From: Sarea resinae
Taxonomy: Eukaryota
Direction: 5' to 3'
NCBI GenBank assembly: GCA_026026165.1
Contig: JAPEUD010000099.1
Span: 1 to 64,000, forward strand
Length of the DNA: 64,000 nucleotides
In this document: one piece after another, positions 678 through 34,505 of the stretch
Position numbering within the stretch: the stretch's first letter is position 1
How the letters are laid out: each line of letters begins with the position of its first letter
Made by a program: the position numbers and the translations under genes
The notes under the pieces: model-generated
Database searches by the model: none
What the model was told of the DNA's origin: nothing
What the model saw: the letters and a program-made list of their open reading frames with translations, nothing else

Positions 678-2638
678 TCAGGTTTCGTCCATTTCATCCT
701 CGTCGTCATCCTCGTCGTCGTCGTCCTCATCATCATCATTGCTATCCTCATCCTCGTCTTTGTTATCGTTATCGTTATCGCTATCGTCAGAAGACGACGA
801 CGACGACGACCCACTACTCTGGGCCCCATTTCTTTTGCCTACATCCCTCCTCTTCATCACGCGTTTCAGCTTTTCCCTCTCCTTGCGCGCCTCGGCTCTC
901 ATGGCGCGTCGCTCGGTCCCCCACACCTTCAGCTGCTCCATCGCCTTCTTCTGGACCGCGCGCGAGTAGTCGAGCGCCGATCGCAAGGCGGCAATCTCGT
1001 CTTCCTGGCTTTGCGCCGGTGGTTGTGAGGGGAGCGAATCGGCATCGGCCGGACCGTCCGTAAGGGGTCGCGTGGATGACAGCAAATCGTGTTTGGTGTC
1101 CTTGCCGTTGGAAGCGTGGTTCAGAGTCGAGGTATTCGTAGTCGCTACAGGACAAGATGCTAGTTCCAGCAGGCCTTCTTCGAGAAGAGAAGAAGGGATC
1201 GCGGGGTTCGCAAGTGTTTGGGTAAAGACGGAGGAGTCCGGGATATAAGAATTGGCAGCAGATAATTTTGAGGAGGGCAGTGCGCCTGTGAACTGCGCGT
1301 TTAAGGTGTAATTCCCTGGTACTGCGGCTCCTGCACCCCCATCCATCGACACCCCATCCACACCCGGCGCGGAGTACGAAGACTCATACCTAGGCTTGAC
1401 GACCGCGACAGCTTTCACCCGCACTTGCTGATCGGCTGTGTTAGTGGCTGTGATGTTGGAAGAAGGAAAGCCTGTTGGTGGTGGGGAGAGCAAATTCGTG
1501 ATCGGTGATGCGAGGTCCGCGATCTCTGATACATAACGATGTTTGGCGACGTCCCATGAGATCAGCTTTCCGGAGGCGTGACCTGTGAAGAGTGTGGTGG
1601 TGTCGTAGGAGAGGACGAGTGAGAGCGTGGAGCCGATGGTGGTCGAAGGAGGAAGGAAATGCGTATTCGGCGGTGGGAGGAGGGGCGTATTGCTGGATTG
1701 CTGGAGCGTGGATATCGGTTGGAGTGCGGGTTTGTCTAGTGTTGTCGATGACGCGGATGAGATTGAAGACGTGGACTGCGATGCGCTGAAGAAATCAATT
1801 ATCTGGACGCTGCCGTCCTCGTACCCGGCGTAGAAAGCGCGGTCCGCGGGGTCGAGCGTCAGACATAATGGCGTCGAGGGTAGGAGAAACGTTCGCAGTT
1901 GGTCGCCGCTATGGTAGTCCCAGATGATGCACGTGGCATCATTGGAGGCAGAGATGGCGATGTTGGTGCGGCCCTGGCTGTGGCCAATGCTCAGGGCCGT
2001 GATTGGTGCGCGATGGGAGGAGAGGGTGCGGATGGGTGATGTGGCATTGACGCCAGAGGAGGTTTTGGAGAATGAGAGGAGGGAGGGCAAGGACCAGATG
2101 TGGATGTTTGAGTCGGCAGAGCCGGAGAGGAGGTAGTTATTTGACGGTGAGATGGCGAGGTGGGTGGTTGGTTGAAGGTGAGAGGGTGGAGAGGAGACTT
2201 GTCGGCCGGTCTGAAGCTGGAAATTGCACAAATCAATATACATGCTCAGTCTAGCACAACCGCCACATCACTAAAACATACTTCCCACACAATTATCCTT
2301 CCGCCTTCTGTCCCGAGCACTAAGAACCCCGCGCCATCATAACTCCCTGCGAGCGCAAGACTGCGAATGCGCTCGGGAAACGCGATTGTAGACTCCTGGT
2401 TGCCCCTCTCGCGATTGTAGACATGAACGACGGCTTTGTCAGCTTGCGCAGCGAAGATGTGAGTTGCGTTTATGACGGCGCTGTTCGCATTGGTGGAGGA
2501 CTTTTTGAAGGTCTGTTTGAGGGTTGGGGACGGGTGGAGGGAGTGGATTTGGATGGAGGCATCTTTGGTGATGGATGTTCTGGAGGACTTTTGGTTTGGG
2601 GCGGAGAGAGTCGCCGTGACGAGGGATTCGGAGAGCAT
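678..2638 (-). CDS. IPI3: Pre-rRNA-processing protein IPI3 / WDR18 (Rix1 complex WD40 subunit), 2 exons, intron ~2217-2281
   Basis: Exon 1 has HIFAAQADKAVVHVY..RGNQES..FPERIRSLAL..LGTEGGRIIVWE. After a GTATGT...CAG intron come WD repeats (LLSGSADSNIHIWSL, HRAPITAL, ISASNDATCIIWD, LDPADRAFYAGYEDGSVQ), then a coiled-coil and acidic tail. Confidence 0.88.
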
Positions 2639-3929
2639 CTTGGAGCGGGGAGGAGTGGTATGGGCCGATGCGCCCTTGAATTGGGGATTATAACATATCC
2701 AGATCGTTTGCGGTGGGTGAGGTCAAAGGATATGCCCGAGTTGGAATTTATTTTGTGTTTGTCTGGTTTGCACTGATTGGTCGATATGTACGTACCTTAC
2801 TCGGTACTTCGACTTGCAGGAGATACTAAGATACCTATGTAGATGGATTAGATCTGATGGCATGATAAGATAACTCTATCAAACTCGATACTCACTGAAC
2901 AGCGACGCCATTCAACATCATCGCCCGTCAACCTCCATCGAGCTTGACACAATAATTATGAATCAGATCAGGCCCATGCCACCTACACTGCCGTCCCTCA
3001 TTGTGCACTTTTGCTACCGTCATGACATGGCCTCTCTCCATGCGCCGTGCGGTGTGCATCATCCCGCTCTCCCCCCAGGGGAAAAGTCCCTCAGGTAGGA
3101 CAGGACGGGGCGGGGATGCTTCGGATGGCGCCTGCAAGGGACCAGGCCCACAAGTGACCTCACATTATCCACGCAAGGACTTCCCGTAACCCGTATCCCA
3201 TGAAAGGAGTGCCATGTGCGATTGATGGTGCCCACGATCTATGGGCGTCCACCTATCTATCCCTAAGTAAATGGCAGGATGACCGCTTTACTCCTTCCCA
3301 AACCCCCTTACCTCGCCTATCCCAGTGTAGACCATCCCGAACGATGGCCGCCTCCTCTTTCTGCGCAAGTCTCTCCGTTTCTTCTCCATTTGGCCCGCGC
3401 TGGCCCGCCGTTGCAAGGTGCTCTTGTCATGCATCGATGGCCAGTTGCCAGGGATGGACATCGTTTGGATATCGCTTGGGACGGGAGATGTGGCTCGCTT
3501 CGTGCGCGGGGGGAGCCCCCTCGGGCCTGACGGTCGAGACGGTCTCTTCTGTCATGGTTGGAATAAAAGTTTTTCCTTTACGCAAGGATATCTCCATCGT
3601 TGCTAGGGCTTTCTGGTGACCCATTGCCTCGGTGACGAAGACCCGTCTTTCTTACGCCATAGACAGGGCTGCCACGAACGGGAGAGCAGCAAGGACTGAT
3701 CTTCGTGGAGAACGAGAGCTATCGAGACCACGAGAGGGATTGAACAATGGCAAGTTCATAAGATGGCCTCTATCCACAGGGTTCCTGGTATCCGGTTCTT
3801 TCTGGGATTTCTGTAAAGCCGTTGTTTGTGCTGTAGCTACCCACTATCAAGCTGTGTGGAAGACGCACCTGTCAATTGCTGCATGCTGGTATCTGCACCG
3901 CATATTTAATTCAAGGACTCTGTCTCATC

Positions 3930-6229
3930 ATGTTTACACCGCGCGACAACACTCCACCGGAGACTACTACAACTGTTGACCCAGACGCGTCTCCAGCGGA
4001 GCGGTCTTCAACACGAAGATGTTACTCATTACCTTCTTCGTGGCGCCAATCTGAGGGCCGATTCTCCCTTGGCTTAAACATCCCGCCTTCTCTTCGACGA
4101 AGACAACCTACGCGCTCGTCGTCTTTCCTACTTGGCCGTCGCCCTTCGCGGGAATCTCAAAGCTCACGAGAAGGCTCATCCCAGCAGAGCGAACCTTCGC
4201 CACCGCTTTCGCCATTTCGATCAGTTTCTGGAATGAAGAAGCCCTTTCCGCTGATGCTGTCAGAGCCCGGGTCGCCTTCCACTTCGGACTTGAGCGCGCA
4301 TAAGACGCTTCCTGCGCAAAATATTTTCCCGATCTCTCAGAGTGCTACTCTCCCGCCAGCGACAAGCACACAGACATCCCACCAGATGGAGGATTCTAGC
4401 CTTTTAATAGGCACGGAACCGTGTGCCATCAAAGGCTCTGACAGTCAAAACGAGTCTGGTTCGTCAGAGAGCACCATCGCAACCGACGATTTCAATTGCC
4501 CGTGTTCCGCTCCCGGATCACCATGCGAGGAACTCTGCATCCTCTCCGATTACGGTGTCTCAGATGAGGCCACTCCATCGCCCGAAGAAGACGATCAAGT
4601 GTGGTTCGAAAGCCTTTCTCGCTGCTCCACCCTTCAAATTGGCCTCTCGGACCTGCTCAACCCTAATCTTGAGAAGGCCTGCGTCCCTGGAGTCGCAGAA
4701 ACTCTTGAAACCCACGGATGTCACCCCAGAAAACCAGCCTCTCTTGAACCATCTCCCATGGAGAAACCCATGAAATTAAAATCAGCGTTGAATGACGAAG
4801 CCCAGTGGCTTGGTGGTTCCCTGGAAATGACATCCTGGCTTGATGATGTCGAAGGTTCTGACTGTGATGGAGACTACCCCATGAAGCAAAGTGCCTTGTT
4901 TAGCGCCTCATCGAGGGACGAGAGCAGCATAAGTTTAACGCCTCTTATCCAAGACGGCATGGACGAGTCAATTGTAAGCGCTGGTTTCCACACATTCCAT
5001 CCGTCGCATGAAAGCAATATGCTGATCATTCCATCTAGAGCTATGCAACAACGCTCACTCCGCGCAAACCAATTGTCGTCCATGTTCGCCGTTCCTCTGC
5101 TTCTTTGGATGCCTCTAGCATCACTAAGTCTTCGTCTCTGCGCTCGGGGAACTCAGGGCTCCAAACACCGAAAATAAGCACGAAACGTGCGCACAATGAT
5201 GCTACCTGGACGCCTCCGGATACGCCAGAACACGTGGAGAAGTTAAAGCTAGCGGCACAGCAGCAAGAGAACAAATCCGCTTCCTCAGATTCCTCTTATA
5301 CCGCGAATGAAAAGCCGGAGAGAACAGCAAAAAAGGCTGCTGTGGGCGACTTCGCAACGCCTCCTCATTCGCCTGATATTATTCACCTTCCCAGCAGCAG
5401 CAGTAGTGCCAGCACGTTAACACCAAGTGAAATTGAACTCCGGATAGCCAGCCTACTCGAAGATTCTGTCCGAGGCTTCCCAGCCACGATGCTACAGCTC
5501 GACTCACCTGTCATCGAGCTCATTCGCGACAAGCACATCTTATCAACGCCATCGTTGTCAGTATTGGCCGGGAGATCCCGAAGACCCTCAAATACTTCTT
5601 CCTTGCCCCCATCTCTCCCACTTTTCATGAACAACTCGCAACAAGGTTGTCCATCCAGCAAGGAAGACTGCCACCACCTGGCACCCTTGCGGTCTATATT
5701 TCCAGAGACATCTGACTTTCTTCGCAGCGCATTCTACGTCCATTTGTTAGCGTTAAATCATATCTCGGCGCTCCCTTTTACCCCTTCTTCCTCTTCTCCC
5801 ACTTCTTCATCGAGCTCTGCCATTCCCACTACCTCTCCCTTCAGAAGAGAACCGCCAAGTTCATTTCCCAATAGCGTCTCGCCAAAAGCACAACTTCGTC
5901 TCGGTATTTCATCTCTGGGCTCAAACTCCGACCCACAAAACACAAACGATCACGACAATGGGAAATCAACGTTCTCTTCAGCATCGACCACGGAGATGGG
6001 AGCAGGTGCCTTAGGTGGAAGGCTGGCTCAAGATGGAGAAGTGGGCGTGGGAGCTAGATTCTCACGCCTGGAAACAGGGTTGAAAGTTTGTGCGGGAAGA
6101 CTTATGGAGGCGATGTGCGGAAGGGGCGGGAGCAGAAGGAGTGACTCTGGACGTGGAGCAGAAGGAGTGGGTACGGACGATGAGATGCTGATGGTGGCTG
6201 TGAGGGAGGTCGTAAGATTGCTGGGTTGA
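3930..6229 (+). CDS. Hypothetical Ser/Pro-rich protein, 2 exons (intron 4974-5038)
   Basis: ORFs 3876-5177 and 5105-6229 join in frame across GTAAGC...GCTGAT...TAG. The C-terminal part has globular-looking segments (FPATMLQLDSPVIELIR, LRSIFPETSDFLRSAFYVHLLALNHI). Confidence 0.65.
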
Positions 6230-7302
6230 ACGAACTCTGAAAAAGTGGCTCCTGTAAGTGGAACGATGAAGATGAGCGAATGGTGGGAACGGAGAAGCTG
6301 CGTGTTAGTCTGATTGCTTCCGGACGATTTCTATCCTCTTTTTCCTGCCCTTGTTTTGCTCTCTGTTCCTCGCATTGCTCTGTTATTTCCCTCCTTCCTC
6401 CTCGTCATCCTCATCTCTTGTTACTGTTTTTATTTTGCTCTTTGCATCTGGTCTCATGATCCACCACGCACGTCACGCAATTTATGAGCCCATATGAGTC
6501 TTGTTTTACGGTCCTTTACGAGTCGAACAGATGAATGATTCGATGAAAGCCTTGTCAGGCAACGAAGAATGATGTAATGATATTTTCTCACGCATGTACT
6601 TTTTTCTTATTCTCTTCATAGCTCAGAAAAACTCAGGGAATTTTGACTTCAAAAGCAAGAGAATGAAACTCACAATAGTAAAACAAATATCTAAGTCGAA
6701 CTGACCTGGCCTAGATATTCTTCGAGCCTTATCTACTCGTGACAGTTAATCTATTGCCTACCTTACGTACCTACTTGCTAGAGATCCCTGAGAGGTAGCA
6801 CCCGGAATAGCTACAGTCGCTAAGCCCATCCAGAGATAAATCATTGGGAGCTCAGAGCCTGAGAGGTGTTTGCGTTGTGTGCATTGAAGCTCTACGCAAG
6901 AGTCCCCTCTTCGAGTGGCACACAGAGCAGCTCAAGCCTTAGGGTTACTAAGTCATGGAGGGACGGCCTTAAGCCTCCGACCGGCCTCATTCTACTGAGA
7001 CGTTCGACAAGTAACGTCTATACGTCCCATGACTGCCTACCTTACCTCACCTTCCCTTCGCTTGTTTGATATCGAAGATGATCTTCAAGGTCATAAGGCT
7101 CAAAGTTGCCTTATTCGTTGATAGGTAGCGAGAACAGATACCATTTTCGGCCAGAGCTTAGTCTCTCAGAGTGCAGCAATCGTTCAGGAAAGCTCCAGGG
7201 TTCGTTCAGGGATTGGCAGCCCATACTCTAGGTAGGTGAGGTGCTGATGGCCACTTCAGGCGACCTCAGAGGCGCGCACCTCACCTCAGCTTCCAATTGA
7301 AT

Positions 7303-8120
7303 AGTTCTGGACTTCTATCGTCGAACGTCTATGAGATTGCCTTCTTTTGCCTTCTTATTCCGCCAATCAACCGATGCGTGGATGGCATCCAATAGATCGT
7401 CTCATCCGATCTGTGTCCAGTTACATTAACCAACCAGATAGTTTTGGACTTTTATCGTTGAACGTCTAGGGAATTGCCTTGTTTGCCTTCGTTTGCCTTC
7501 TTCTTTCACAGACTTATCAATCCGTGGATGACAGCCAATAGACCATCCCGTCCAATGGGCGTCCAGTTGCATCGACCAACCAGATAGTTTTCGGCATTCA
7601 TCGTCGAACGTCTATGAAATCGCCTTCTTTTGCCTTCTTCTTCCACCGACTAATCGATGCGTGGACAGCATCCAATAGATCCTCTCATCCGACCTGCGTC
7701 CAGTGGCATGGACCAACCAGATAGTTTTGGACTTTTATCGTTGAACGTCTAAGGAATTGCCTTATTGCCTTCTTTGCCTTCTTCTTTCACAGGCTGACCG
7801 ATCCGTGAATGACATCAAATAGACCATCCCATCCGATTGGCATCCAGTTGCATCGGCCAACCAGATAGTTTTGGACATTTATCGTCGAACGTCTACAAGT
7901 TTGCCTTAATTCGCCTTCTTCGTCGACGGTCTACCTGGCCAATCACATCCACTGCAACCTTCCCATGGGCCGGCAGTAGTCGCTGACAAGACCTCGAGGG
8001 CCTGTCCGGAAGCTGCGGGTTGCTTCTCTGCCATGTACGAAGTAGGCGACATCCATGGATCAGAATTGCTGCATGGCTGCTTCCAATCAAGTAATTTTGG
8101 ACTTTTATCGTCGAACGTCT
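7303..8120 (+). repeat. Six direct copies of a 28-bp motif (consensus AGTTTTGGACTTTTATCGTCGAACGTCT) in diverged 137-226 bp units
   Basis: Motif starts at 7303, 7440, 7586, 7723, 7867 and 8093. Each is followed by (T/C)GCCTT..(T/C)GCCTTC, and copies 2-5 are preceded by CCAACCAGAT. Confidence 0.95.
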
Positions 8121-8381
8121 CTGAAAACGATTGCCTTCTTTGCCTTCTTGGTTCACGGACTAGCCAATGACACATACCAACATCTCTGCATCCAGGTGCA
8201 TCGACCACTCATGTTTCAGTCCGTGGGAACAATCAAAGGTTCAGTGTCAAGCCGTGTGCATACCTTCGGTGTCCCACGATAATGCCTGATGAGAACAGAG
8301 GGCCAATGTAAAGGGGCGATTTCATTGGGCGTTGGTGGAGGCTAAGGCATAGGGAGCTGCAGCTTTCCGTTGCATATCCAT

Positions 8382-9285
8382 AGACGTTCGACGATAAATG
8401 TCCAAAACTCCTCTCAGCAGTCGGTGGAAAGCAGAACGTTACTCCAAGGACTGGCACCCGACGATGATCCATGCCAATACGCAGTACAGTGATCAATGCA
8501 AATCGCAAAGAGGAGCGAGGGACCTCTATGGCATCAGACGAGGCTAAGGGAGGCAGGACTGCGGCTTTCCGTTGCATATCCAGAGACGTTCGACGATAAA
8601 TGTCGAAAACTCCTCTTAGCAGTCGGTGGATAGAAGAAGAACGTCACTCTAGAAATGGCATCTGACGAGAAATGCCTGTAAACGGCCAGTACAGGGATCA
8701 ACGCAAAGCACCAAGGGCAGGGAACGGCTCGAGGAGGCTAAGGCAAAGAGGGCTGCAGCTTCCCGTCGCATATCCAGAGACGTTCGACGATATTTGTCCA
8801 AAACACATCTTAGCTGTCGATCGATCGAAGAGGAGAATCAGGCGCTGCCTCTTCGATTGGATGCCCAGATCCCCGACAATCCCTCAGGACACTTCTACTG
8901 GTGGAAGGAAAAGTGATCAAATCGGTCGCCTTTTTTCAGGCGATTGACCAACATGAAGGTAGTACACAGTAGACCGGGATGCTGATAGTGCGCTTGTCGC
9001 CTTCATCCATGGAGGCGTCCGATCATGACTGTCGAAGATGATTGGGGGGAGTCGGAGAAGCGACGATGGCCGTGGTTGGTTCATGCAGCTTGATGCAGAT
9101 GGATTGATCTATGCGATTGGTTAGCACATGAACGGAACAAGGCAAACAGGGCAATTTTGTGTAGACGTTCGACGAAAAAAGTCCAAAACTTCATGATTGG
9201 AACCCGTGCCAGCAGCTTCCAATCAAAGACGTGGGTTGAGAGGTGAGCAGATTATGGAGACGTTCGACGATAAATGTCGAAAACT
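8382..9285 (-). repeat. Five inverted copies of the same 28-bp motif (AGACGTTCGACGATAAATGTC(C/G)AAAACT on the + strand)
   Basis: Starts at 8382, 8584, 8778, 9163 and 9258. The first three lie in ~200-bp units sharing GAGGCTAAGG...GC(A/G)GCTT(T/C)CCGT(T/C)GCATATCCA. Confidence 0.95.
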
Positions 9286-10670
9286 ACGTGAGAGGCTGAA
9301 TCCTGACCGGGGGAAAGAGAGGAATCTCCAGATGATGTGAACGCCTCATGCATATGCTACCGGAAGAGGGTAGGTAGACAACGGAGGCTGGGGGTGGGGA
9401 GCGGAGGGTGTGCAGGTGATTCAGGTCGAATGGAAATGTGATGTGATCAAAGCTGTTGCCTTTTTCTGGATTCCATTCGTGCATGTCCGTTGATAGCATG
9501 TGTCAAGATACTGGAAGGTTAGGGCCATGGTGGAATGTTGGGACCCAAGGACATTCGTACTGAGAGTCCCGTGTCCTATTGTTACTCAAACGAGTCTCTT
9601 AACAGCACTCAGACTGTAGTAAGATACGGAGTGCCTACTAGGTATCTTATTTGGCTGCTCGACGAAATGGTTTGAACCTTTGCTAATAAGATGGCTTCCA
9701 CCAAGATCTTCGGACCACGATAATTTGATGCCACGAAATCTGTTAGCTACAATATCTGGAAATCGGGTTCGGAGGAAGGAGCTGAGTCTGTACGAGTGAG
9801 GAATGATAATTGCGATCCATGGCTCAATTTGACATACCACCGGCGAAATTTGCGCGCAACCTAAAGATCCCTGACGCGAAAGTGCGCTCCACGATCTCTC
9901 GAGCCAGATTACACACCGATAGGAGCTCGCAACCCTAGAGGGGACAGCCTCTTATCTCTTCAGACCAGGACCCTTGGAGAATTTATACACAGTACAGCAG
10001 CATCCTTATATTACCTAGGTACTGGAAATTACAGGAGGAATTAAATCTCTCTAAGTATAACTGGTTCCTACTTCAGGAAGGAGTCTATACAGTGTGCCCT
10101 GACATAGAAGAAGTTAGTGGGTTAAAGGAGAAGGTAGCAGACACCCTATTTACCGCATTAAATTCCTCCTAGGATCTAGTTTTCATCGAGTCATCATGAT
10201 AAGTTGAATGAGAGTATGCTAAGGTAGATTATTAGTGTGATCTAGGCAGATAGACAGTACACTAAGTCTTAGCCACTTTTTGAAAATTTTCGAAGAAGCC
10301 GAGCAAAAGAGATAGATGTCATGTACAACATATTTGAATTTCAATTTATTTTCTATTTTATTTGTTGAGTTATGCGGTGATAAAGTCTATACCTCAGGTT
10401 ATAGTGGTCGCGAGGCTCCGATCGTGCCAACTTTTGACCTAGTACGATAGGTACCTGAATAGCTTGGGTAGGCCCTACCTTAGCTGACGACCTTTCTCTC
10501 CTACATCATAGAATAACCTTCTTTCACTTCTCTCACCTAGATCACCCAGATTACAAATTGATCTTAGCCGGCCCAAAGTTTACCTCAGACTTCTCTCACC
10601 TCTCTCCTTCGGGATCGCAAGACATACTAAGCCGGTAAGAAAAGTTAGCCTCAGAAAACCCCAAAGAAAG

Positions 10671-11276
10671 ACGGTAACCGCACACGCCTACCCGCCCCTC
10701 CGCTCCAATCTGAACCTCACAACGCCCATCACCGCCGCCACAGCCCTCGAGCACATCTCCACCTACCTACTCTCCATGACGCGTGGACCACAAACCCAGC
10801 CCTACATCCCGACGCGCTGCTTACGGAGCGCGCCGCGCAGCGTTCCTCCAGCTGCGACGGATCGAAGCCGGGCTTCGGGGCAAGGTTCTAGGTGCCGATG
10901 TCGAGGGTCTTGGGGAGAGTGTGGATGTAGACGCCGATGATGAGGGCGTCATAGGCGAGTTCGGAGAGGGTGTTGCTAAGAAGGGGAAGGGGCCGAAGAA
11001 TGACCGCGCTGGAGAAGACGGCGATTGGCAAAACCTAACGACGTACCACCAATCCGGAGACGGGATCGAGATTGGCGAAATTGGAGCACCGAATACCATT
11101 CTGGGCGATGGGGTGAGGTGTCCGCTCTTGCCGTCAATGATAGGTATGAGGAGATGAGAGATGCAGATGAGGTGGTGGACAAGGAAGCTCGGAAGAAGGC
11201 TAAGAAGGAGAAGGCGAGGCAGCAGAGACGATCGCGGGAAGAGCGATTACGACTAGAGAAGGAGGCGGAGATTTGA
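10671..11276 (+). pseudogene. RPA14: Frameshifted copy of a fungal RNA polymerase I subunit RPA14-like gene
   Basis: Collinear blocks fall in different frames: (T)VTAHAYPP..ATALEHISTYL / TTNPALHPDALLTER / FLQLRRIEAGLRGKVLG..DWQNLTTY..IGEIG / VDKEARKKAKKEK. These match recalled Pezizomycotina RPA14 motifs. The putative start is ACG, not ATG, and there are about 3 frameshifts. Confidence 0.6.
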
Positions 11277-13537
11277 TTTGAGGGCTCTTGTTTCGCAATG
11301 GCTTTGACGTCGAGGCTAATATGAACAGGAACAATCATGAATGGGCTGCTGAAGGTGTCACCGTTCACATGTATCCGCGTCGACGACCACCACATCTAAG
11401 CCGCCAACCGCCACCTACGAAACTTTTCACCTACTCGTATATCGCCGACGGAACATCCAGCATATCAATTATAAACACGTTGCGTTGCGGTCACAACGTT
11501 CAAGCTCACCCTCACCTCTACTCCAGATCTTCTCTATCTCCAGTGCTGATCCATTTCAGCCCTGTGCCATCTCCAACTCTCACTTGAACCACTCGTCTAC
11601 GCCTAACATGAGTGGGAGCAGCACCACGGCTCTTCGAGTCATATCAGACAGCTCTTTGGAGATATCAAGAGCGAGAGAGGACGATGTCCCTCTCAGAGAT
11701 GGAGTGCATGCCATCTCGAACAGTTCCTATCGATCCTTGTCGTCTATAGACAGCCAGGAAACAGTGTTCATTCTGATGAGAGCAACAGTTTACCGACCCT
11801 GGTGTTTCTAGAACCCCGTCACACAACAGCGCGAGAGGTGTGGGGTCACTACCAGAGAGGACTGATCGAAACACCGTGGCGGGCCAGTGTTATGCGTTCC
11901 TTCAAGCAACGTATTTTCTATTCTGTTCCAGCTAATCCGAGCGCAAAACAAGACAACAGCGAGTGTGTAGGCTATTATAGGGCTTCTAGGAACGGATGAT
12001 GTTTCTAAAGCACCAAAAAAAGAAGACAAACAGCGAGTGTTAAGGAGTGGACGTTACACATAATGTCACTCAGATTTGAGTTCTTGCTAAGTTTGGACAG
12101 AATCATTACCGCCACAGCACCGGTTACATCCGCAGCACTGGGACCATATCAAAGGGCAGTGCAACAACGCAGTTCTCTTGGCGCAGACCAGCATTTGTCT
12201 TCAACGTTATCTGCCGGATCACGCAACAAAACTCTGTCTGTTAGCACCTTCAAGCCCGCACTGGCCATTGCAAATGCCGCAGAGTCCCTGTAAGGTCCAG
12301 TGAATAGGCAAACGGTAAATAGGCAAACCTGTTCCCACGTGAGCCAAAAAGACTACTATAACCCAGCTAGTCCGGGTTATGCTTATTTGCCTACTATAGC
12401 GCAATGCTCCTCACAGACCCACGCCCTCAGAATTGGATGCACATACGCTCCTCTATAAGGGCTCGTCTATGGCGAGACTCCAGAAAGTGTTCGAAGCAGA
12501 CGGTACGCTGGACTTTGTGCCATTGGGCAGCACCCTTCCCCCTGGCTGCTTCGACAGGACTGTGCGTGGACTGTAGTTTACGAAGATCCGTACTGTAGCT
12601 TGGCAATACGCGCAATGGGGACGAGATCTTACCCGCGCGCATGTCATTAGGTATTCGCGCGATCCCTCTGTAGCTCTGGCCTGCTAAGCGCGCTTCAACG
12701 ATTAGGCTCCTTTGGTGCGGCGATATTCAAACTTAAGAAGCTCAGTGGTCCAGATGGTCCAAATACTAGTAGCCTTGTTAAATGGTGTAACGAGTCTGTC
12801 AACAGTAAGAGACAGAGTGCCTATTGGTCGTAGTAGGCACGCAGTATCTCATCCGATAGGGCTGCTCGATGAAATGGCTTGAACCCTTGCTATTGGACGA
12901 CCCAGACAGAGCCAGAGACGTACCGGGGTGGCTTGGGTAAGGTAGGTGCTCGCTGAAGCCAAGTCCTTTTATCCTATCCCCTTTAGCCGCCATCCATTTG
13001 CGACGTTCGACGATGAATGTTCCGAGACTATTTCGTACAACACCGAGGTCCACAACCCTCGAAGTACTGGCAGATGGAGATTGGAATCATGTTGACATGG
13101 ACGACCTGTGTTGCGGATTGCAGTCTGGCGTCAAGTCGCATCGCAGATCCTGTGCCGATTTTTCAGTCACAGAATAGCTCATTGATTTTGTATGGAAACC
13201 TTGTGAACTCTTTGCCTTCGATCCCGTTCCAAGCAAGTCGTCTCGAATGCCTTGCTCGAGTAATTCTTCTCTAGCTCGGAAAGAATCAAGGGCCAAGGCT
13301 CTACTCGCTGTTTTATACCTCTGTACCTCCTCTTTATCCATAGTCCAGCAGATCAAGAGCGCTCCTTTTTCGGTCCTCAAAAACGCGAACTCTGCCTCCA
13401 CTTGATGTGACAGACGCGTTCTCACTGATTGATATATCAGCAGACGATCACAGCTTCTTCCAAGTTCTGACACGCTGTCAACACCTTGATGATCCATACT
13501 TGAATCTACCCGTAATGACGATAATGACTCTTCTTAG

Positions 13538-14724
13538 ATGGTTCGACTTCTACATCGGCGCCTTCGTTCTTCCCGGGCTCCAACAGACCACTTGACTCTT
13601 CAACACTCAACGGAGAGACCTTCCGTGCCGTCCGTCGCCCAGACAGCGCGGGATGGGGCCGCTATGCTCCCCATTATCATGATTCCACCCGACGGCCGAG
13701 ATATCCGGAACCCCTATGTTGAGCCTCATCACGGAAGCGTCGACCACGATTGCCACGCTGGTGAGGATCACGGATGTGTATGTCGTGCTAACCTTGTCGA
13801 CTAAGAAGTCAGTGGTGGCCTCGAGTACTGCTGTCTCGACGACGACGGCAATCACACAGCTATCGTCAAATGCATCCTCGGACATAATCACATCGAGAAC
13901 AACGGTAACGACTCTCTCTAGCACGGTCCTTTTCTCCCTCCTATCATCAACGCTCTGCTACCTCAACAGCCGCCACCGCAGACGGCGCCAGTTGGCCACT
14001 TGCACCACCCCGGTTCCCCTCTTCCATTGTACTCGGAAAATCCCTCGAAGCCGATTAGCCTTGGACTTCTTCTCCCTGAGCAGGGTCCATCGTCCCCATC
14101 AGAAGGCTCGAGTGATATCCCCCATGCCGGCAACAGGCCCGGTAGTGGTGGCAGTGAAGCGGCATACCGAGAAACGACCTCTCTGCTCGGAGAACGGCTG
14201 TATCGGCTCCGAAGCACGAACCACAGGATCCCACCAGCATCACCAGCTGCTTTCCAGCCATACGAAGAGGGGCAAGCATATCCATTATGCCGCCACAAGC
14301 ACGCGCTGTCACATTAGCAGCAGCGTCAAAGACCCCACCCAACTCGGCTGCTCCGAACCCCTTGGTCCTCAAAACCCTCTCCTCCAGAGCTGGCTCTTTG
14401 GCTCACACCCTGTCAAACACAAACAGCCAGTATCTCACCAGACCCTGACCTCCTGGCTGGAAATTGTACACACGCTCATCACGAGCCCCGCGGGCCCCAG
14501 CAATAGTGCCGCGATTGGCTGTTTCCAAAACAAAGCCCAAAAGGAGAGGGGTTAAACGTTCGACGAGACCGATAACAGACGTGCAGAATCTGGAGGCACT
14601 TTCACAGACAGTGCGGCCAGCTCGACCAAGGGCGATGGCGATGGTGGTGGCGGCAAAATTCACGGCAGAATCCGCATTAACAACGACGCCAACTCAGGGA
14701 AAAGCCAGTCCTCAATCCCTCTGA
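13538..14724 (+). pseudogene. Probable decayed gene for a Ser/Thr-rich single-pass membrane protein
   Basis: An S/T-rich stretch, a hydrophobic segment (VLFSLLSSTLCYL) and a basic stop-transfer (RHRRRR) lie in ORF 13716-14555. A Pro/Ser-rich tail continues in another frame (ORF 14000-14317). No clean start or splice model was found. Confidence 0.3.
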
Positions 14725-15240
14725 AGCACGCGAGAAGAAGAAGAAGCAGCCGGCGCGGCCCAAAATCCAGACCGTGACATCTGCCTTCGAGGACAAGATG
14801 TGGGCTGTTTGAAGGCCTGGAGCATTGGAACCAAAAAGGTTGAATCTGTGCTTCCATCTAGCACTTCCATAGAACGAAGAAGCACGGAGAACAAAGACAC
14901 GATGGTCTAGACGTGTTTATAGGTGAGTAAGGACATGGCATGCGGTCAGTAGGGATAGGGGGCGGGAAGGCATTGTAGGCACGACGAAAGTCTGAACACA
15001 ACCTTGTGCTCGTATAGGCCCAGAGCCGTGCTCGCACTTTTGTCATGTCGCAACAGGAGGTGTTTTCGCGTAATTATTTAGCGACAAATTGCTATGACTG
15101 TAGGACCGTTGCATGCAAGCAAACATGTCTAGTATTTATTTACCCCTACAATTACAAGATCGTTCAGAAGAGAGCAAAAGTAGAGAATGAACAGGAATAG
15201 AGCTCTTGCGTTTGCGTTCGCGTTCACTTTGTGATATCAT

Positions 15241-15270
15241 ATGTATATATATATATAGATATATATATAT
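15241..15270. repeat. (AT)n microsatellite, interrupted
   Basis: atgtatatatatatatagatatatatatat. Confidence 0.85.
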
Positions 15271-15714
15271 AACCTTCGTACTACTTTCAGCTTTGTACAC
15301 TGTATGAATTCAGTTACTGTCATCGACTTCTATTCATGGCAACTGTGCTATTTGGTTGGTACCTGATGGTTTTTGAGATTCTATCCTACCCTCTGTTATT
15401 GTTGCGAAACTTACTCCTATTATCATGCCCTGGCCTGGCCAGTCTGTTCTGAAATAGGGACTGACAAGATGAGACGAGACAATGGCGAATCAAGAAAAAT
15501 CTGGGAGCAGGATGCAGAATAGGCACCGCATTGTAGTGCATAGCACAGCAAAATCAAGTTACAGGAAAGAGCAGCTCACGTTATAGTCTTCGTTGATGAA
15601 TAGATAGATACCCCCGAGGTATGTAAGGAAAGAACAGAGGAGACACACACGCTCGATGGAGAAGGGGGACCGAAAGCGAGTAGGAATATAGAAGCGAAAA
15701 GAATTAGATTGTCT

Positions 15715-18425: not shown

Positions 18426-20591
<2,166 letters not shown>

Positions 20592-21421
20592 TCAATTACG
20601 AGCCAGAATGCCAGAGAACGGGGCTGGTGCGTAGAGCAGGTTCACAGGCCGCAATCGGAGCCGGGGGATGAAGAGTCGATAAGGTACCTCTTGCGAGATT
20701 GACTAGATGCTTGGAGCCTTGCAGGGGCGGGCGGGCGGGGTCAGAAAGCGCAGAAATGAAGATCAATATTGAGGTATCGCAATGGGGATGAGAATGCTAT
20801 TCGAGAGGGCGAATACGGGTGCTCAGAAGATTTTATGAGAATGGTTCGGACTGCAGGCTTCTTCTTGTGGACACGATTACTCCCTACGGAGATCCTCCAG
20901 ACTGCGTTTCGGCCGCGTCAAGAGTTACGAAAAGTCGGCACCTAAGTTCCTAGTGGGCTTGGCCGGTGTCATTACAGTTTCGCAAAGGTCACTAGGCCCC
21001 ACATATAATAATCCGCAAAAGAAATATGGTAACTGTTCATTATTGCTGTGCTCGCAATTTCGAAGTCTCATGTTTTATTGTAACAAAGGAAATTGCGAGA
21101 TGATTCGTTGACTGTCGCGTTCAAATGTAGTACAAATACATCCATGGATGCTTCTGTCACTGCCGCACCTAACGCACTCGGGCTTACAGTCGATCCCAAT
21201 ATGGCTGTAACAATTACAAATGTCCTTTGACCGCGAGGTGACCCGGAAGTTCTAGTTCGAGATTTCATCGGACTTCTATTTACAAAAGATGAGATTTATG
21301 ATACGCCCCAAACACCATGCTCAATTTTCAACCATGGCCCAAATGTCGTGACGCCAGAGGTATGCCCCATGATGATGCTCGTAGAAATGGAGGGAAACAA
21401 AACAAGTGCAAAAAGTCTAGG

Positions 21422-22451
21422 CTATGCCTCGATTTTCAGACCCGATCCTAGAGCATCTTGAACCGCCTGCTCCTGGGTTTTAAGCTCCTGCTCCTTCAGA
21501 AATTGAGCGTACTTCGAGCGCGAGTTGTGAATACCACACTCCTCCTTCTTCCGGCCCTTCCAGCGACCAGCTCGTTCATCTTCGCCTTCTTTTATTGGTC
21601 TGACATGTCGTTAGAAAATGAGAAATATTGATTGAAGGAGGATCACTTACGAAGTGGAATGCCAGTCCCCTACACTCTTGTAGCCCCTATCAAGAAGCTC
21701 ATTGTACGGAACGTTGTATGCCCTGATGTAGTCCTGAACCTGCTTGAAGCTCCAATTGGCAAGCGGGTTCACTTTGATCAAGCCTGCTTCGTCGACTTCG
21801 ATGATGTCCAGATCTCCACGCTTCCCTCCTTGACTTCTTCTTCGGCCCGTCAACACAGCACTGACCTGCAGGTCAGAGTAGGCCCTCTGTGCAGGTTCGA
21901 CCTTGGCCACCCAGTCATAGAGCTCCTCATTCTTCTCCCATAACCTCTCGCCGTGCTTCTCGGCGAATTCTCTAGCGTTCTCCACGCCTTGCGGCTTGTA
22001 GATGTGCAAATTCGTATGTGGATATCGCTTTTGGACACGGTCAACGAGAGCCAGGGTCTCATCAAAATGATGTAAGGTGTCCAAGAATATCAGATCGACG
22101 CGAGAGGACCATGGGGATTGAAGTCGAGACAGCATATCCACAGTCACGAGACCAGTCAGGCCGAATGCAGTTGTCTGGTACAAGGATGGCAAAGTGGTGA
22201 TGCACCATCTCAGTACATCTGTTCGGATTATCAGTTGATGATCTGGACATAGTATATCATGGCGCAGATGCTGCTTGAGGGATCTCACCTTCTGGCTCAA
22301 GGTTTTGCAATTGCTGGTTGAGAAACTTTAGATGCGGCTTCGTGAAGGAAACTTCCGGGATATTAGATTCGCTCGAGCAGCCACTGGCATAACCAGATTC
22401 AACATCTCTGGTAGACATGGTTTCGCTTTCGTATTCCTGTGAGACACCCAT
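21422..22451 (-). CDS. MET16: Phosphoadenosine phosphosulfate (PAPS) reductase, 3 exons
   Basis: YQTTAFGLTGLV, LIFLDTLHHFDET, LYDWVAKVEP, VLTGRRRSQG, KVNPLANW, YNELLDRGYKSVGDWHST, and a last exon with ERAGRWKG..ECGIH. Confidence 0.96.
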
Positions 22452-25725: not shown

Positions 25726-26295
25726 AGGACGCTTTTGATCTTGCTTCTGTACTTTTGAGCCAATTAAAGGGAGCGAACGAAGAAAAGATGGTTTCATATC
25801 AATGTCCATGATGCCAAAACTGAGGGAGAAACAATAGACGTGAAGTGGGCAGACGTCTTCCAACGTTGGTCCCAGTAATGACAGATAAATAAAATGGCTG
25901 GTTCGTTTGCTAAGGTAAGCCCTTCACTGTGAATTAAAGTTGAAAGTAAAATGTGCTGCTAATTTATGTGGACATTTTCTTCCATGATCCACAGATCCAT
26001 GGATACAGCTTCGATGGGAAGTTATGAAGTAAAAGGTAAAAGCTGCGCTAGTGACCACCAAAGGCCGCCGTAGTAGCTGCGGTTGCCCTAGATCTTTGCC
26101 TCAGTATACTCAGACCTCGCTTGGCAGGTGGTCCGCTGCGCACGGACCACTATTGCCTAAATAGGCAATCCACCAGCCAGAGGTCTGAGGCAATTTCTCT
26201 AATTTTCTACGTCAGCAGCGGCTAATTTGTATAGAGTCAGCAATTATCAGCAAGCATTAATTTCAAACTATAAGATATCTGCAACTACAACGCCT

Positions 26296-29056
26296 ATAGC
26301 AGTGATAGCTATATTATCTGAAAGCTACACTTCTGTTCTATAATTAATTACTATATCTGCTTCTAGGACTAATCCTAACGTGCAGAGGAAGCGCTAGCAG
26401 ACAACAACTATTTCTGCACTAATATCTGCGCTAACCACGCTACAGACATCCTCTTCTGCATTGCTAACCCTTATATTAGCGCTGTTAGCATCGAATACTA
26501 ATTAGTCTCTGCTAGAAGCGTTAGCAGATAAGGTTATACCTAGCAGAATAAGTGCAGAGGCTAAGCTCTACTATATTATCGCTAAGTTGTAGGAGTGGCA
26601 GGTGACGCCTTTAACTCTTATAACGTTCTAGCTAGAATATATAAAGGATAATTAAAACTTCTGCTAAGCTAAGCAAAGGAAAGACCTTATTAGATTAGTC
26701 CTTAGATTTAATAATATTAACAATCTTCTGTTAGAAGCAGATAAAGGCCTAGCTATAGTAATAGACAGCAGTATTAGCCTTATCCGCGGCGAATTAAACT
26801 AGCTATAGAATTGTTGTCAGCTGTTTAGCTAATACAGTAAAGACTTAGACTTTAAGACACTTAATATAACTCGCTCTGCAGGCAACATCTTAGAGATAGC
26901 GCCTATGTTATCACGACTAATTAGCAGTGCAGCTGAATTGTAGTATGCAGCGAAACATTAGCAGAGGACCTATTTAGCAGACGCTAGACAACTTGTTATA
27001 ACAGCATCTATATTCTGTCTTAGCTACGCTAAATCGTTAATGAATTGCTTTGCCTGCCTACTAGGATTATATCTATAAGACTCTAGGTTGACACAGCGTG
27101 CGCTAAGCACGCTCTATAGCCTAGGTCTAGTGGATAGATATCGCATAATAGACATGCAGAAACAGCAGATATTAGATTAGAGTAAGAAACGTGTCCTCTA
27201 AACGCTACTATCAGCTAGGGCTAACTAAACAAAGGCAGATATCTGCTTAGCCGCGCAGACATAGGACTACACTATTATATATAACAACTTTAAATGGCAT
27301 GTAAAAACATAGCATCAAACAGTTAGTTATACTAGAACGCTCTACTTATACACCACTAGAAAACTCCTACGCAGACAATGTTTACTAAGCAAAGGACTAA
27401 CACAAGACATGTTCTACTCTAATGTTTGTGCTAATATAATGACTCTTCTAGAAGCAGATAGAAATTGAGTCGATAAAACGCAGGCGCAGATATCAACGCA
27501 TTTAGTTGCTAGTGCTATTCGCACAGCATGTCTAGACGTTGTTAATGCTATATTCGCAGCAGATATTAATGCTTTCCTGCAAATGCCAGCTGTTAACGTT
27601 CTTCTGCCCTTGCAAATAGAGCATATAACTCTTAGACTAATCACTAAATCTAAGGGCTCTATAGCAGGCATATATTAGGTGTTAGACAACATCTTTGCTA
27701 GCTAACTAGGGAAGGATACAGTCGACTTTAAAAACAAGTTAGTGTTAGTATTTAGTGACTAGAAAACAACAGCGCTAATCTGCTCTTATTAGCTTAAGCG
27801 ATTAGAGGCAGCAGATATACATAATCGACTTAATTAGATATTATTAGTACCTAGCCTCTTTCACTTGCAGATAAACCTACTAGCATTGATTGTTAGATCG
27901 CACTACAGCAGACAAAGCAGTCTCAACTAATACTCAACGTTATATTCGCATATAAATTACCTTAGTCGTCAGAATATACCCGCAGATAAAGCGCTGTTTC
28001 ACTACTAGCAAGAGCTTGTTTAACATAGCTTTCAGGCCAGAATAGTTGCACTATTTATATCACAACTGTCTGTTTTATATAGACAACAGAGTAAAGGCTA
28101 ACTAGATAAGATGCTCTGCAAAATGACTCCTACAAACTTTCTCGCTTAGGTAGAGAATATCTGCAAAACTGTCTTCTCTGCTGCTAGCTATTAGGAGTTA
28201 GCTTAATATAAGAAGGATATACATAGTAGAGATAGAGATATAGCAGGTGCTAGTTGAAAGCAGAATTATAAGCAGCAGCATCTCCTGCATGATTCTAAGT
28301 ATTTCAATCACATCTGCTTTCTGCACTATGTAGAAACATACTTAACCTTAAGGCATGCTATTAAATTCGCTGATATTGGTTTGCTTTGCCGCGCGATTAC
28401 CTGTAGCTGTCTGTATTTTAGCAGAAGTGGTTCGCATAACTATTCGCAGGAGATAATCTAATTTTAGCAGCTAATATTAACGCTAACGTGTGATCTGTGT
28501 CTGCAGGAGGCTATACTTGCGAATAGTCTTGTCAGCAACTACAACAAACTAGGTGCCTTTATAGAAGTCGATTAGATAAACAAGCTGTTAAATCTAGAAT
28601 TAAAGACTATCTTATAGACTAAAGGCAATTCAACGTTCGATATAACAGCTTTATTTAAATAGTTAGTGCTGCTGACTAGCTATCTTACTCTGCTCTATAC
28701 TGAGTTTAAGTTTGCATTTAGCGAGCAGACAAACACTTCTTATACTAACAAATCTGCTGCTACAGATATTAGGAGTCTTGCAGATATTATTGCCTAAGAC
28801 TCTATAATCTGCTGCAAGGATAGGATGTCTGTATATATAGCTCTAGGATTGTTGCAATTAGGTGTTATACAACTAGCTTAGAAGGGGCTGCCTACGCTTG
28901 CTAGCAGATATATAGATCTAGATAAGGAGGGTATTTCTAATATAGACTAACAGATAGTAGAGGTGTTAGTAGGCCTTGATATAAGTATATCTTAGCGGCT
29001 TTATTATGATTTGTATAATAGCTGACTTTATTGTAGGCACTAGATACCTGATTAGT
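26296..29056 (+). pseudogene. Academ-type (DUF6589-like) transposase with many RIP stop codons; boundaries approximate
   Basis: Translated relics: LLVPSLFHLQINLL (~27841), FNHICFLHYVETYLTLRHAIKFADIGLL..YF..SGSHNYSQE (~28303-28450), AILANSLV..FIEVD..NKLLNLELK (~28509-28605). Confidence 0.75.
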
Positions 29057-29174
29057 ATAGCGGACGAACGCATGATTATACCACTTCCTAGTTATATACT
29101 AAATCATGATTGCAATTTAATTCTATCTACTATTGTGTGCCTAACTAGCTAGCTGTTAGCTTAGCCACGTCAGA

Positions 29175-30840: not shown

Positions 30841-31118
30841 AATAATAGCAAGGATAATATAGATGTTAGTTATCAATAATTGACAGGCTGTAGCAGAGTT
30901 ATTAAACAAAAGAGGTGCGATGTTAACAATGTTAATAAGGTTAACAAGGTGATAAGGTTGATAATATTTGCAGGTTAGCTATATAAAGAAGTGGTTCTTT
31001 GTTTAAACAAAGAAATCGCTAGTCAACTATTCACTTGATTTATTAGGTGTACTTGTTTGCTAGATGCAGAAGTTGATAGCAGGTAGAGGTGAGTATTTAT
31101 ATCTACCTTAGCTAGAGG

Positions 31119-33539: not shown

Positions 33540-34505
33540 CTAGCAAATATAAGTGATCTAATAAGGAGACTATAGCTTTTTCTAACCTTATATAATTCTC
33601 TAAAGTCGTTACAGCTGATATAGTGCAGGCGTTGTTGTGATATTAAGGTGGAAATAATCGTCCTATAGTAAATCTACTGCTTATTAGTGCAAACAGTTAT
33701 TTTCACTTTAAGGCATAAGATAATCTAATTAACTGCACCTGTTACAATACAATTAGGACTATTTAATAGCCCTGTTAAAACTGTATAGATAATTAGATTT
33801 CTATAGCCGCAGCAGATGTGGTTGTAGATATATGCTGATAAACTTATTCGCTATACAGATGAAAAATCTGGTTTTGCTGCAAATTTTCAGAAAAATTGCC
33901 TCAGACCACATTTTCGTGGATTACCCTTTCGGGAATGCTTAGTCATTCATCCGAACGGGCCGGATGTTAATCCGGATCCACGTGATGTGGTCTGAGTCTA
34001 CTGAGGCAACCTAGATCTTCAGCCCCGCCAGCTCTTCAGCTGTCCCTCGGCCCCTCGACCGCGCCGCAACTGCTTTGACGAGCCATTCCAAGCATTCCGA
34101 AAGTTCCCCGACTAAAGTCAAACCCTTGCTTATACGGGACAAAAGCATGAGATGTTTTTTATAACTCAGCGATTTCTAACCGAACATACATATGCCTGAG
34201 CTCGAATGCTGGTCTTGTCTTCGCTGCTCGTGACCCTATACCTTAGATTCAACCCTATTAGCGTGCTGGATCACCGCGTCTCCAGCGCGACTATTGTCGA
34301 AGCCTATATCGCTCACCGACGCCCCAGCTGACCTTCCGGTCTCTTAATCACACGCAGTATTCCGGGATATTATAAGAATCTGTTGAAGAGTTGAGAAACG
34401 ATACCGGGCCAGAAATTTTACCCGGGGCCGGGTTCTCACATCCCGAAGCGGATTCAACATTGCAAATCTGGTACATTGTACGGATCCGAATAACAACAAA
34501 ATATC

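Follow-up and report, generated by a model that had tools for sequence, protein, structure and literature searches.

Eleven copies of a 28-bp motif in two opposed blocks of Sarea resinae DNA, a candidate row of protein-binding sites

Our study concerns 64,000 nucleotides of the fungus Sarea resinae (GCA_026026165.1, contig JAPEUD010000099.1, positions 1-64,000, forward strand; hereafter the window), in which a gene-free stretch of about 2 kb carries eleven copies of a 28-base motif, the core, arranged in two opposed blocks. The end of the nearest gene on the left points at this array, and on the right no recognisable gene is found within 6 kb. A homologue search with the open reading frame at 10780-11154 returned no relative of near its length. 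Pfam analysis of 45 open reading frames revealed no recombinase, and those near the array (at 3837-14552) match no Pfam family, nor do the six read-through frames of 6230-15700, so that neither a mobile-element nor a DNA-binding domain is found there. The sole element in the window lies at 26-34 kb and encodes a DUF6589 protein; it shows no convincing core under a RIP-aware pattern in which C/T and G/A were allowed. One core-like match with three mismatches (30611-30638) is marginal and sits within this AT-rich element, not at its ends, and we take it to be a chance match.

Each of the eleven copies matches the consensus AGACGTTCGACGATAAATGTCCAAAACT with 0-3 mismatches, and no core match arose in 100 shuffles that preserve dinucleotides. 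The minus strand carries six cores, which start at 7303, 7440, 7586, 7723, 7867 and 8093; the other five, at 8382, 8584, 8778, 9163 and 9258, lie on the plus strand. The start-to-start distances are 137, 146, 137, 144, 226, 289, 202, 194, 385 and 95, and the final minus core ends at 8120 while the earliest plus core starts at 8382. The earlier note on this DNA had described eleven copies in two opposed blocks at these positions, and both the count and the opposition hold; its picture of the make-up of the array has to be amended, as there are two families of unit, L (about 137-146 bp) and R (about 194-202 bp), which have the core as their sole common sequence, plus one inverted L unit. The first five minus cores occupy one L unit each, together with CCAAT boxes and CT-rich sub-repeats of the GCCTTCTT type, and these units form a higher-order repeat of about 283 bp (L1L2/L3L4; 7301-7652 against 7584-7933, 84.7% over 352). 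The first three plus cores occupy the R units (8338-8640 against 8540-8834, 77.6% over 312), and the inverted L unit forms an inner inverted repeat with the sixth L unit (8081-8207 against 9202-9077, 75% identity over 128 bp). By eye, the R-unit flanks are unlike L units save for a short AGTCGGTGGA-AGAAGAAG stretch. Also by eye alone, and below PWM scoring, a core-like remnant lies at about 8276-8300 in the central stretch.

Table 1. Parts of the array and occurrences of the motif elsewhere in the window.
Feature	Position	Strand	Basis or remark
Truncated head-to-head remnant, AGACGTTCGACAAGTAACGTCT	6998-7021	+	Family D7; left box with 1 mismatch
Left block, five tandem L units (137-146 bp)	7289-7950	-	TRF period 137, 2.9 copies
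Sixth L unit, core 8093-8120	8079-8207	-	Left arm of inner inverted repeat
Central stretch where the orientations meet	8208-8336	.	PWM: no match above 12
Right block, three tandem R units (194-202 bp)	8337-8834	+	Family D3; TRF period 194, 2.5 copies
Inverted L unit L7, core 9163-9190	9077-9202	+	Right arm of inner inverted repeat
Outermost right core, perfect-dyad variant	9258-9285	+	29-mer 9257-9285 identical to 8583-8611, flanks unrelated
Decayed solitary core, GCGACGTTCGACGATGAATGTTCCGAGACT	13001-13029	+	nhmmer E 1.9e-4
Left box alone, 1 mismatch, AAACGTTCGACGA	14554-14566	+	Possible chance match
Decayed solitary core, AGACGTCCAACGATAATTGGCGAGAATG	58652-58679	-	PWM 21.9 (at most 13.0 in 20 shuffles); nhmmer E 0.011

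The core stands out sharply from the units that carry it. Information per column is 1.5-2.0 bits within it and at most 1.0 outside, with abrupt edges, and pairwise identity among L units is 526/588 (0.895) in the core against 1296/2610 (0.497) in the rest, which bears out the claim that the core is better kept than its flanks. Across all 55 pairs of the eleven copies core identity is again 0.895 (1379/1540), and L, R and outer units are hardly alignable outside it. Two pairs of 29-mers are 100% identical despite unrelated flanks, 7867-7895 with 8381-8409 and 8583-8611 with that of the outermost right core. The core consists of a 13-bp left box, a 5-bp linker and a 10-bp right box: the left box, AGACGTTCGACGA, contains GACG twice, 7 bp apart; the linker is A/T in 53 of 55 cells though its sequence differs among copies; and the right box reads GTCCAAAACT or GTCGAAAACT. 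A dyad, TTCGAC-GATAAAT-GTCGAA, spans both boxes and is perfect in the copies at 8584 and 9258, as had been observed before, and in no other of the eleven. Over all copies, arm complementarity extends to 54/66 cells at the inner six positions and to 11/77 at the next seven outward, and the 7-bp spacer occurs in six versions.

Recent constraint is limited to the left box. In five recent unit pairs this box shows 0/65 differences against about 13.1 expected (P = 4e-7), a statistic for which the box limits were set after the data had been seen and in which two of the five pairs have one unit in common; the P value stays below 1e-4 even after multiplication by the roughly 150 possible 13-bp windows. 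The expected number was computed from the BLAST identity of each pair itself, which is the conservative choice; for the 7303/7586 pair an alternative flank figure takes in unique sequence outside the array and was not used. In the same pairs a flank-like rate of change is seen in the right box, with 7/50 differences, and in the linker, with 6/25.

The motif is also present outside the array, which extends the inventory of eleven. The remnant at 6998-7021 consists of eleven left-box bases, four further bases and then the box start inverted. The solitary core at 13001 has right-block orientation and the core alone in common with array units, and that at 58652 sits 49 kb from the array; both are decayed, so retention of the motif is not general. 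The isolated left-box match at 14554-14566 may be due to chance. Contigs from the probable source sequencing run, the one run found to contain the stretch, carry near-perfect cores in unrelated flanks: 29 contigs matched, of which 8 tile the locus and 16 fit it in part, with loose ends at core borders. Two foreign contigs hold two cores each in opposite orientation, 21 and 36 letters apart, with their right-box ends facing each other, a polarity opposite to that at the array centre. Beyond this run, the two other organisms of the same sequencing study gave no matching contigs, which is no proof of absence. The strict core pattern found 0 loci in metagenome collections, and a relaxed 17-base pattern found 44 loci there with a single match each, at which the free positions look like chance (17-23 of 28 identical). 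In prokaryote genomes 27 loci were returned, each a lone match in a bacterial or archaeal record and none related. Among the papers listed by a literature search with a half-core string, the titles and abstracts concern CpG oligonucleotides, vaccines and unrelated genes, and none is relevant.

The array is not RIP-mutated, unlike the 26-34 kb element: CpG observed/expected is 0.97 in the array and 0.64 in the element, and TpA/ApT is 0.47 and 1.47 respectively, in agreement with the claim that its CpGs are intact where those of the transposon are not. Core-free bins of the array show the depth of a single copy among the source-run contigs, a measure that covers likeness of 80% or more and would overlook copies of greater divergence, and the arm sequences have no second copy there at 80% identity or more. 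A unique array that is free of RIP and single-copy in its core-free parts was not recently one of several long copies. As there was no recent multi-copy state, and RIP has been active on the 26-34 kb element, selection on the array as a multi-copy 2-kb transposon is hard to invoke.

From this analysis, we propose, tentatively and with confidence somewhat short of even, that selection has maintained the array as a row of at least eleven putative sites for one sequence-specific DNA-binding protein, the row being probably of mobile origin. The left box has remained unchanged while its surroundings drifted, and the copies are therefore most likely docking sites for such a protein, with selection presumably acting on the host. 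The putative site would be bipartite and polar, made up of the left box, an A/T linker of variable sequence and the right box, and the short 6-7-6 dyad across both boxes suggests binding by a dimer. The row would have grown through tandem duplication of whole units and one inverted duplication, after which the units would have drifted apart while the box was held. The dispersal of the motif points to an origin by copying, that is, from a mobile sequence, because a 28-bp motif cannot recur by point mutation; this mobile origin may have been followed by retention at the array locus. Binding might load protein with high avidity on to the gene-free gap, which would then serve as a platform for cis-regulation or for the organisation of chromatin. 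Some observations count against a row of binding sites: the right box and linker evolve like the flanks, the solitary copies are decayed, and the gene surroundings offer no nameable target of regulation. Were the whole array a single recent insertion, its constraint could go back to a mobile ancestor and not to this locus.

Should selection be holding the left box here, the fungus would possess an undescribed sequence-specific DNA-binding protein with a long bipartite site and dispersed targets, eleven of them at one locus in two opposed rows. The array gives a handle for finding this putative protein, and it would allow a test of whether the ends of mobile elements were taken up as sites for regulation, boundaries or replication barriers in a genome where RIP is active and only very short repeats can spread.

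A serious but on balance unlikely alternative is that a non-autonomous foldback-type DNA transposon left the array behind as an inert relic, or seeded it as a satellite. Its opposed arms would be tandem sub-repeats with one transposase-binding site, the core, in each; the core would have been conserved by past selection for transposase binding before this copy landed, and the dispersed cores would be other relics of the family or small palindromic MITEs. The earlier note had suggested an array of binding sites or a foldback-like element, and its general idea of binding sites, possibly foldback-like, is strengthened by the left-box constraint and the dispersed motif; the termini and target-site duplication of a foldback element were looked for and not found. 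Long inverted arms of tandem sub-repeats are indeed present, with six units facing five opposed cores, and the layout of opposed units of about 140-200 bp, non-coding and in rearranged forms, each with one short conserved site, resembles that of Galileo and Tetris (PMC3688188, PMC4079207). In Galileo (Drosophila, P superfamily) the long TIRs contain tandem repeats in which THAP binding sites lie (PMC3688188), and Tetris has tandem repeats of about 220 bp in its TIRs, which seed satellite arrays (PMC4079207). Galileo, Tetris and classic FB elements have opposed arms of tandem sub-repeats of about 136-220 bp, with a short protein-binding site in the sub-repeats, and are often non-coding and strongly rearranged (PMC3688188, PMC4079207), a form that the array shares if its core is such a site; the THAP recognition sequence of Galileo is called short (PMC3688188), against 28 bp for the array core. 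The scatter of the core among unrelated flanks, the decayed solitary copies and the local head-to-head remnant at 6998-7021 would fit such a family, and the close opposed pairs in the foreign contigs are MITE-like and short enough to escape RIP.

The array differs from these foldbacks in its RIP-active fungal host and in a site constrained since the latest duplications; in a dead relic the left box should decay as fast as the flanks, and no differences are seen where 13 would be expected. No terminal domain and no matched outer ends were found: sensitive self-BLAST over 5.5-16 kb detected no outer terminal repeats, and inspection at 7289/9202 and 7303/9285 revealed no target-site duplication. 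The arms are unequal, with 6 against 5 copies and two unit types, and are single-copy in the source run at the identity given above, and a multi-copy element of 2 kb should show RIP here, which the array does not. The foreign close pairs have a core polarity contrary to that of the array centre, no transposase domain is found in the region, and the DUF6589 element offers no convincing core. The literature searched describes no fungal foldback element. Were the array nevertheless such a relic, it would show in a fungus an architecture that has been described chiefly in Drosophila, and its value would lie mostly in repeat annotation.

A more specific version of the binding-site reading, which we consider improbable, is a polar protein-loading platform kept by the host and derived from domesticated mobile-element ends, serving as a replication-fork trap or a chromatin boundary. 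The two blocks would then be opposed rows of high-affinity sites for one protein, working as an architectural device of the chromosome, and the dispersed single and paired cores would belong to the same system. The bacterial Ter/Tus fork trap and the RTS1 and rDNA barriers of fission yeast comprise opposed groups of polar fork barriers. By analogy, their asymmetric sites of about 20-30 bp, grouped with opposite polarity on either side of a central zone, may be compared with the array; the likeness is one of architecture alone, and the array units are tandem duplicates while Ter sites are not. The CENP-B box of primate alpha satellite is a protein-binding box whose binder is a domesticated transposase, which would suit a sequence of mobile origin that the host later put to use. 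There, as in the array, a short box stays constant in drifting tandem units; alpha satellite extends over megabases against 2 kb here, and the array has opposed blocks and no sign of a centromere. In Aspergillus nidulans, AMA1/MATE is a non-coding inverted duplication of a dispersed repeat with clusters of short motifs, known for plasmid replication and with arms of kilobase length. It shares with the array the form of a fungal non-coding inverted duplication with a clustered short motif; its kilobase-long arms and its motif differ from those of the array, and the likeness is one of description. The papers listed by a literature search on AMA1/MATE all use AMA1 plasmids as tools.

A strained and quite improbable reading makes the array a decayed minisatellite of the ordinary kind that has undergone one inversion, functionless and with the core its slowest-drifting part by chance. 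The tandem structure with higher-order repeats, the ordinary substitution spectrum of the youngest unit pair (29 transitions, 12 transversions) and the location in a gene-free gap would all be expected of such a repeat. Divergence is not uniform over the unit, however: the left box remains unchanged with a probability under neutrality that stays low after correction for the choice of window, identical 29-mers occur in units whose flanks cannot be aligned, and the same 28-mer is found at other loci in unrelated flanks.

We regard as very improbable the proposal that the units are small transcription units in which the core is a common promoter module, with an upstream box, a TATA-like linker and a second box; equally faint is the prospect that they yield short non-coding RNAs or, by convergent transcription, feed a small-RNA locus. 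The A/T-rich linker suits a promoter, as do the CCAAT boxes and CT-rich tracts of the L units, which are common in fungal promoters, and opposed blocks would give convergent transcripts. The parts that would be transcribed are the least conserved, though, and no support was found for a structured RNA, a tRNA or an Rfam family: a search of 6000-10600 gave no Rfam match at E up to 5, a scan of the window gave 0 tRNAs, and folds of the units were no better than those of shuffles (z -0.8 to +0.7).

It is scarcely credible that the array consists of tyrosine-recombinase core sites serving inversion or excision, as had been suggested earlier: there is a real short dyad around a 7-bp asymmetric, A/T-rich spacer, in the manner of the inverted dyads around 6-8-bp asymmetric spacers of lox, FRT, dif and att cores, and one inverted duplication within the array, but the symmetric arms are 6 bp long against 11-13 bp in those systems and lose complementarity beyond that, the dyad is perfect in two copies, the strongest constraint falls on an asymmetric 13-bp box and not on two symmetric arms, no recombinase domain is found nearby (Pfam, open reading frames and read-through frames), and partner recombinase sites have identical spacers, so that the six spacer versions would block strand exchange between most pairs of cores. 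Among the folds, a 6-bp hairpin forms solely in the perfect-dyad variant (z -2.0). The GTTCGA of the core coincides with the centre of the Pol III B-box (TFIIIC) consensus, to which, judged by eye, the conserved positions on either side do not conform (about 6 of 10).

Sequence comparison within the window indicates that the 28-bp core of this array is constrained. The 28-mer, AGACGTTCGACGATAAATGTCCAAAACT, occurs in 11 copies at three or fewer mismatches in the whole 64-kb window; 100 dinucleotide-preserving shuffles yielded no match. Cores of both orientations meet between 8120 and 8382, at the centre of the array, as the earlier note had described. The array is non-uniform and is built from two tandem unit types, L and R, whose flanks are dissimilar. 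Within the left block a higher-order repeat of about 283 bp is apparent (L1L2 against L3L4, 84.7% identity over 352 bp), and the L units additionally carry CCAAT boxes and CT-rich sub-repeats of the GCCTTCTT type. A near-palindrome is also present in the L units; in L1 it reads GGATGGCATCC and adjoins a CCAAT box.

Features of the array and its surroundings, with strand and basis
Feature	Position	Strand	Remarks
Minus-strand cores	7303, 7440, 7586, 7723, 7867, 8093	-	n = 6
Plus-strand cores	8382, 8584, 8778, 9163, 9258	+	n = 5
Left block, L1-L5	7289-7950	cores -	five tandem L units, 137-146 bp
L6, sixth L unit	8079-8207	core -	130 bp unique sequence from left block
R1-R3, start of right block	8337-8834	cores +	three units, 194-202 bp
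L7, inverted L unit after R block	9077-9202	core +	75% identity over 128 bp to 8081-8207
Outermost right core	9258	+	
Truncated head-to-head core remnant	6998-7021		profile/weight-matrix scan
Decayed solitary core	13001-13029		nhmmer E 1.9e-4
Decayed solitary core	58652-58679		score 21.9; maximum 13.0 in 20 shuffles
WD40 gene	681-2267		
ATP sulfurylase	18429-20591	-	PUA-like and APS-kinase-like domains
PAPS reductase	adjoins ATP sulfurylase	-	pair spans 18429-22327
Sec2, MFS, Arb2, glyoxal oxidase			further neighbourhood genes

The expectation that the core is better kept than its flanks was borne out. Column information is 1.5-2.0 bits within the 28 bp and at most 1.0 outside, with abrupt edges, and identity among the L units is 0.895 in the core (526/588) compared with 0.497 in the remainder (1296/2610); all 55 core pairs together give 0.895 (1379/1540). 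Two pairs of 29-mers (7867-7895 and 8381-8409; 8583-8611 and 9257-9285) are 100% identical, while the flanks of their units cannot be aligned. The core comprises a left box, a 5-bp linker and a right box. The left box, AGACGTTCGACGA, varies only by one G-to-A change common to L2 and L4; the linker is variable in sequence, yet A/T at 53 of 55 positions; and the right box is GTCCAAAACT, replaced by GTCGAAAACT in two copies. Across five recent unit pairs (L1/L3, L2/L4, R1/R2, R2/R3 and L6/L7) we counted 0/65 differences in the left box, 6/25 in the linker and 7/50 in the right box. For the left box, 13.1 differences were expected (P = 4e-7) when divergence was set conservatively by BLAST identity for each of these pairs; the separate flank figure for L1/L3 takes in sequence beyond the array. 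The box limits were set after the data had been viewed and R2 enters two of the pairs, and P stays below 1e-4 when multiplied by the roughly 150 possible windows. The linker and right box show no departure from expectation. An additional left-box-like 13-mer with two mismatches lies within L5 (7920-7932, minus strand), 25 bp from its core.

The motif is also found beyond the array, a point that the earlier note had proposed to check. Scanning the window with a 28-mer profile and a weight matrix recovered three decayed or truncated copies, whose likeness to the array units is limited to the core. Allowing up to two mismatches, the left box alone has 18 matches where 1.25 would be expected; six fall beyond the array proper, and three of these carry a single mismatch and are located within 7.0-14.6 kb. 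Of 29 contigs from the probable source run placed on the locus, all at single-copy depth, eight tile it and 16 match partially, with loose ends at core borders and flanks of low agreement, and raised contig depth is restricted to bins containing a core. These patterns indicate cores, with unrelated flanking sequence, at further loci in the genome, numbering on the order of ten. The largest stack of contigs falls on 8584, a perfect-dyad copy, which suggests that the dispersed copies may have the perfect form, TTCGAC-GATAAAT-GTCGAA. Two foreign contigs each hold a pair of oppositely oriented cores, separated by 21 letters in one and 36 in the other; such pairs look like very short MITEs and could escape RIP. 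A mobile origin of the motif is likely, because its spread requires copying and these close pairs are MITE-like. A short block recurs as a direct repeat 3.2 kb apart (9653-9685 and 12860-12892, 91% over 33 bp; second part 9618-9637 and 12804-12823). Each copy has, within the next 45-110 bp, a core-like stretch that has decayed (9707-9742; 13001-13029), and the block may represent an older, third type of unit in this family.

From this analysis we tentatively favor a row of putative protein-binding sites kept by the host. The main alternative, an inert relic of a foldback-type transposon, agrees with the architecture of the array, but we consider it less likely: the left box is unchanged since the latest duplications, whereas flanks have changed by 15-25%; self-comparisons, even sensitive ones, reveal no outer terminal repeats, and neither termini nor a target-site duplication were found. 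Among the source-run contigs, no further copy of the arms was found at 80% likeness or above. Furthermore, the array is free of RIP although a long repeat 17 kb away in the same genome was mutated, so that it has probably long existed as a single copy; its CpGs are intact, as previously remarked (CpG o/e 0.97 and TpA/ApT 0.47, against 0.64 and 1.47 in the element at 26-34 kb). In the youngest unit pair, the substitutions are 29 transitions and 12 transversions. Selection at the level of an element would require many transposing copies, which is disfavored here, and thus the host-kept array ranks first and the relic second; of the earlier lead, the idea of a protein-binding row, possibly foldback-like, is retained. 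Tyrosine-recombinase core sites, defined by 11-13 bp arms and identical spacers, are rejected: the proposed dyad around a 7-bp spacer is real but short (inner six arm positions complementary in 54/66 cells, the next seven outward in 11/77) and fully paired in only 2 of 11 copies, the spacer has six versions, and neither the ORF Pfam scan nor the read-through frames of 6230-15700 contain a nearby recombinase.

For host-kept binding sites, the boldest reading is that the opposed rows would have a polarity-dependent role, such as a fork barrier or boundary; they may be no more than the record of one inverted duplication. Points of comparison for the array are the CENP-B box, Ter/Tus, RTS1, TFIIIC B boxes and AMA1/MATE. 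Half-core strings retrieved no relevant paper in the literature searched; the motif may still be described under another form. At the RNA level, no Rfam family matched 6000-10600 at E up to 5, no tRNA occurs in the 64-kb window, unit folds do not outperform those of shuffled sequences (z -0.8 to +0.7) and the consensus core has no fold (z -0.08); a 6-bp hairpin forms only in the perfect-dyad variant (z -2.0).

The neighborhood of the array is housekeeping in character. The sulfate-assimilation genes are adjacent and share the minus strand, and the closest solved chain to the ATP sulfurylase is 1i2d_A (E 7e-108), a Penicillium enzyme. Six read-through frames of 6230-15700 match no Pfam family, placing the array in a 9.5-kb stretch without a recognizable gene; this holds several ORFs of 100-290 aa, one of which (10780-11154) found no homologue of near length, and either contains orphan genes or forms a gene desert around the array. 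To the left, plus-strand ORFs (3837-6226) have their 3' ends toward the array. The AT-rich, RIP-mutated element at 25900-34600 encodes a DUF6589 protein riddled with stops (plus strand, residues 519-941 of read-through frame 1, E 9.6e-45), a family named in a single paper of the literature searched; its minus strand shows a weak match to Helicase_C (E 1.2e-4). Two palindromes lie outside the array, at 15239-15271 (28-32 bp, 87-93% self-complementary) and 35458-35495 (38 bp, 84%).
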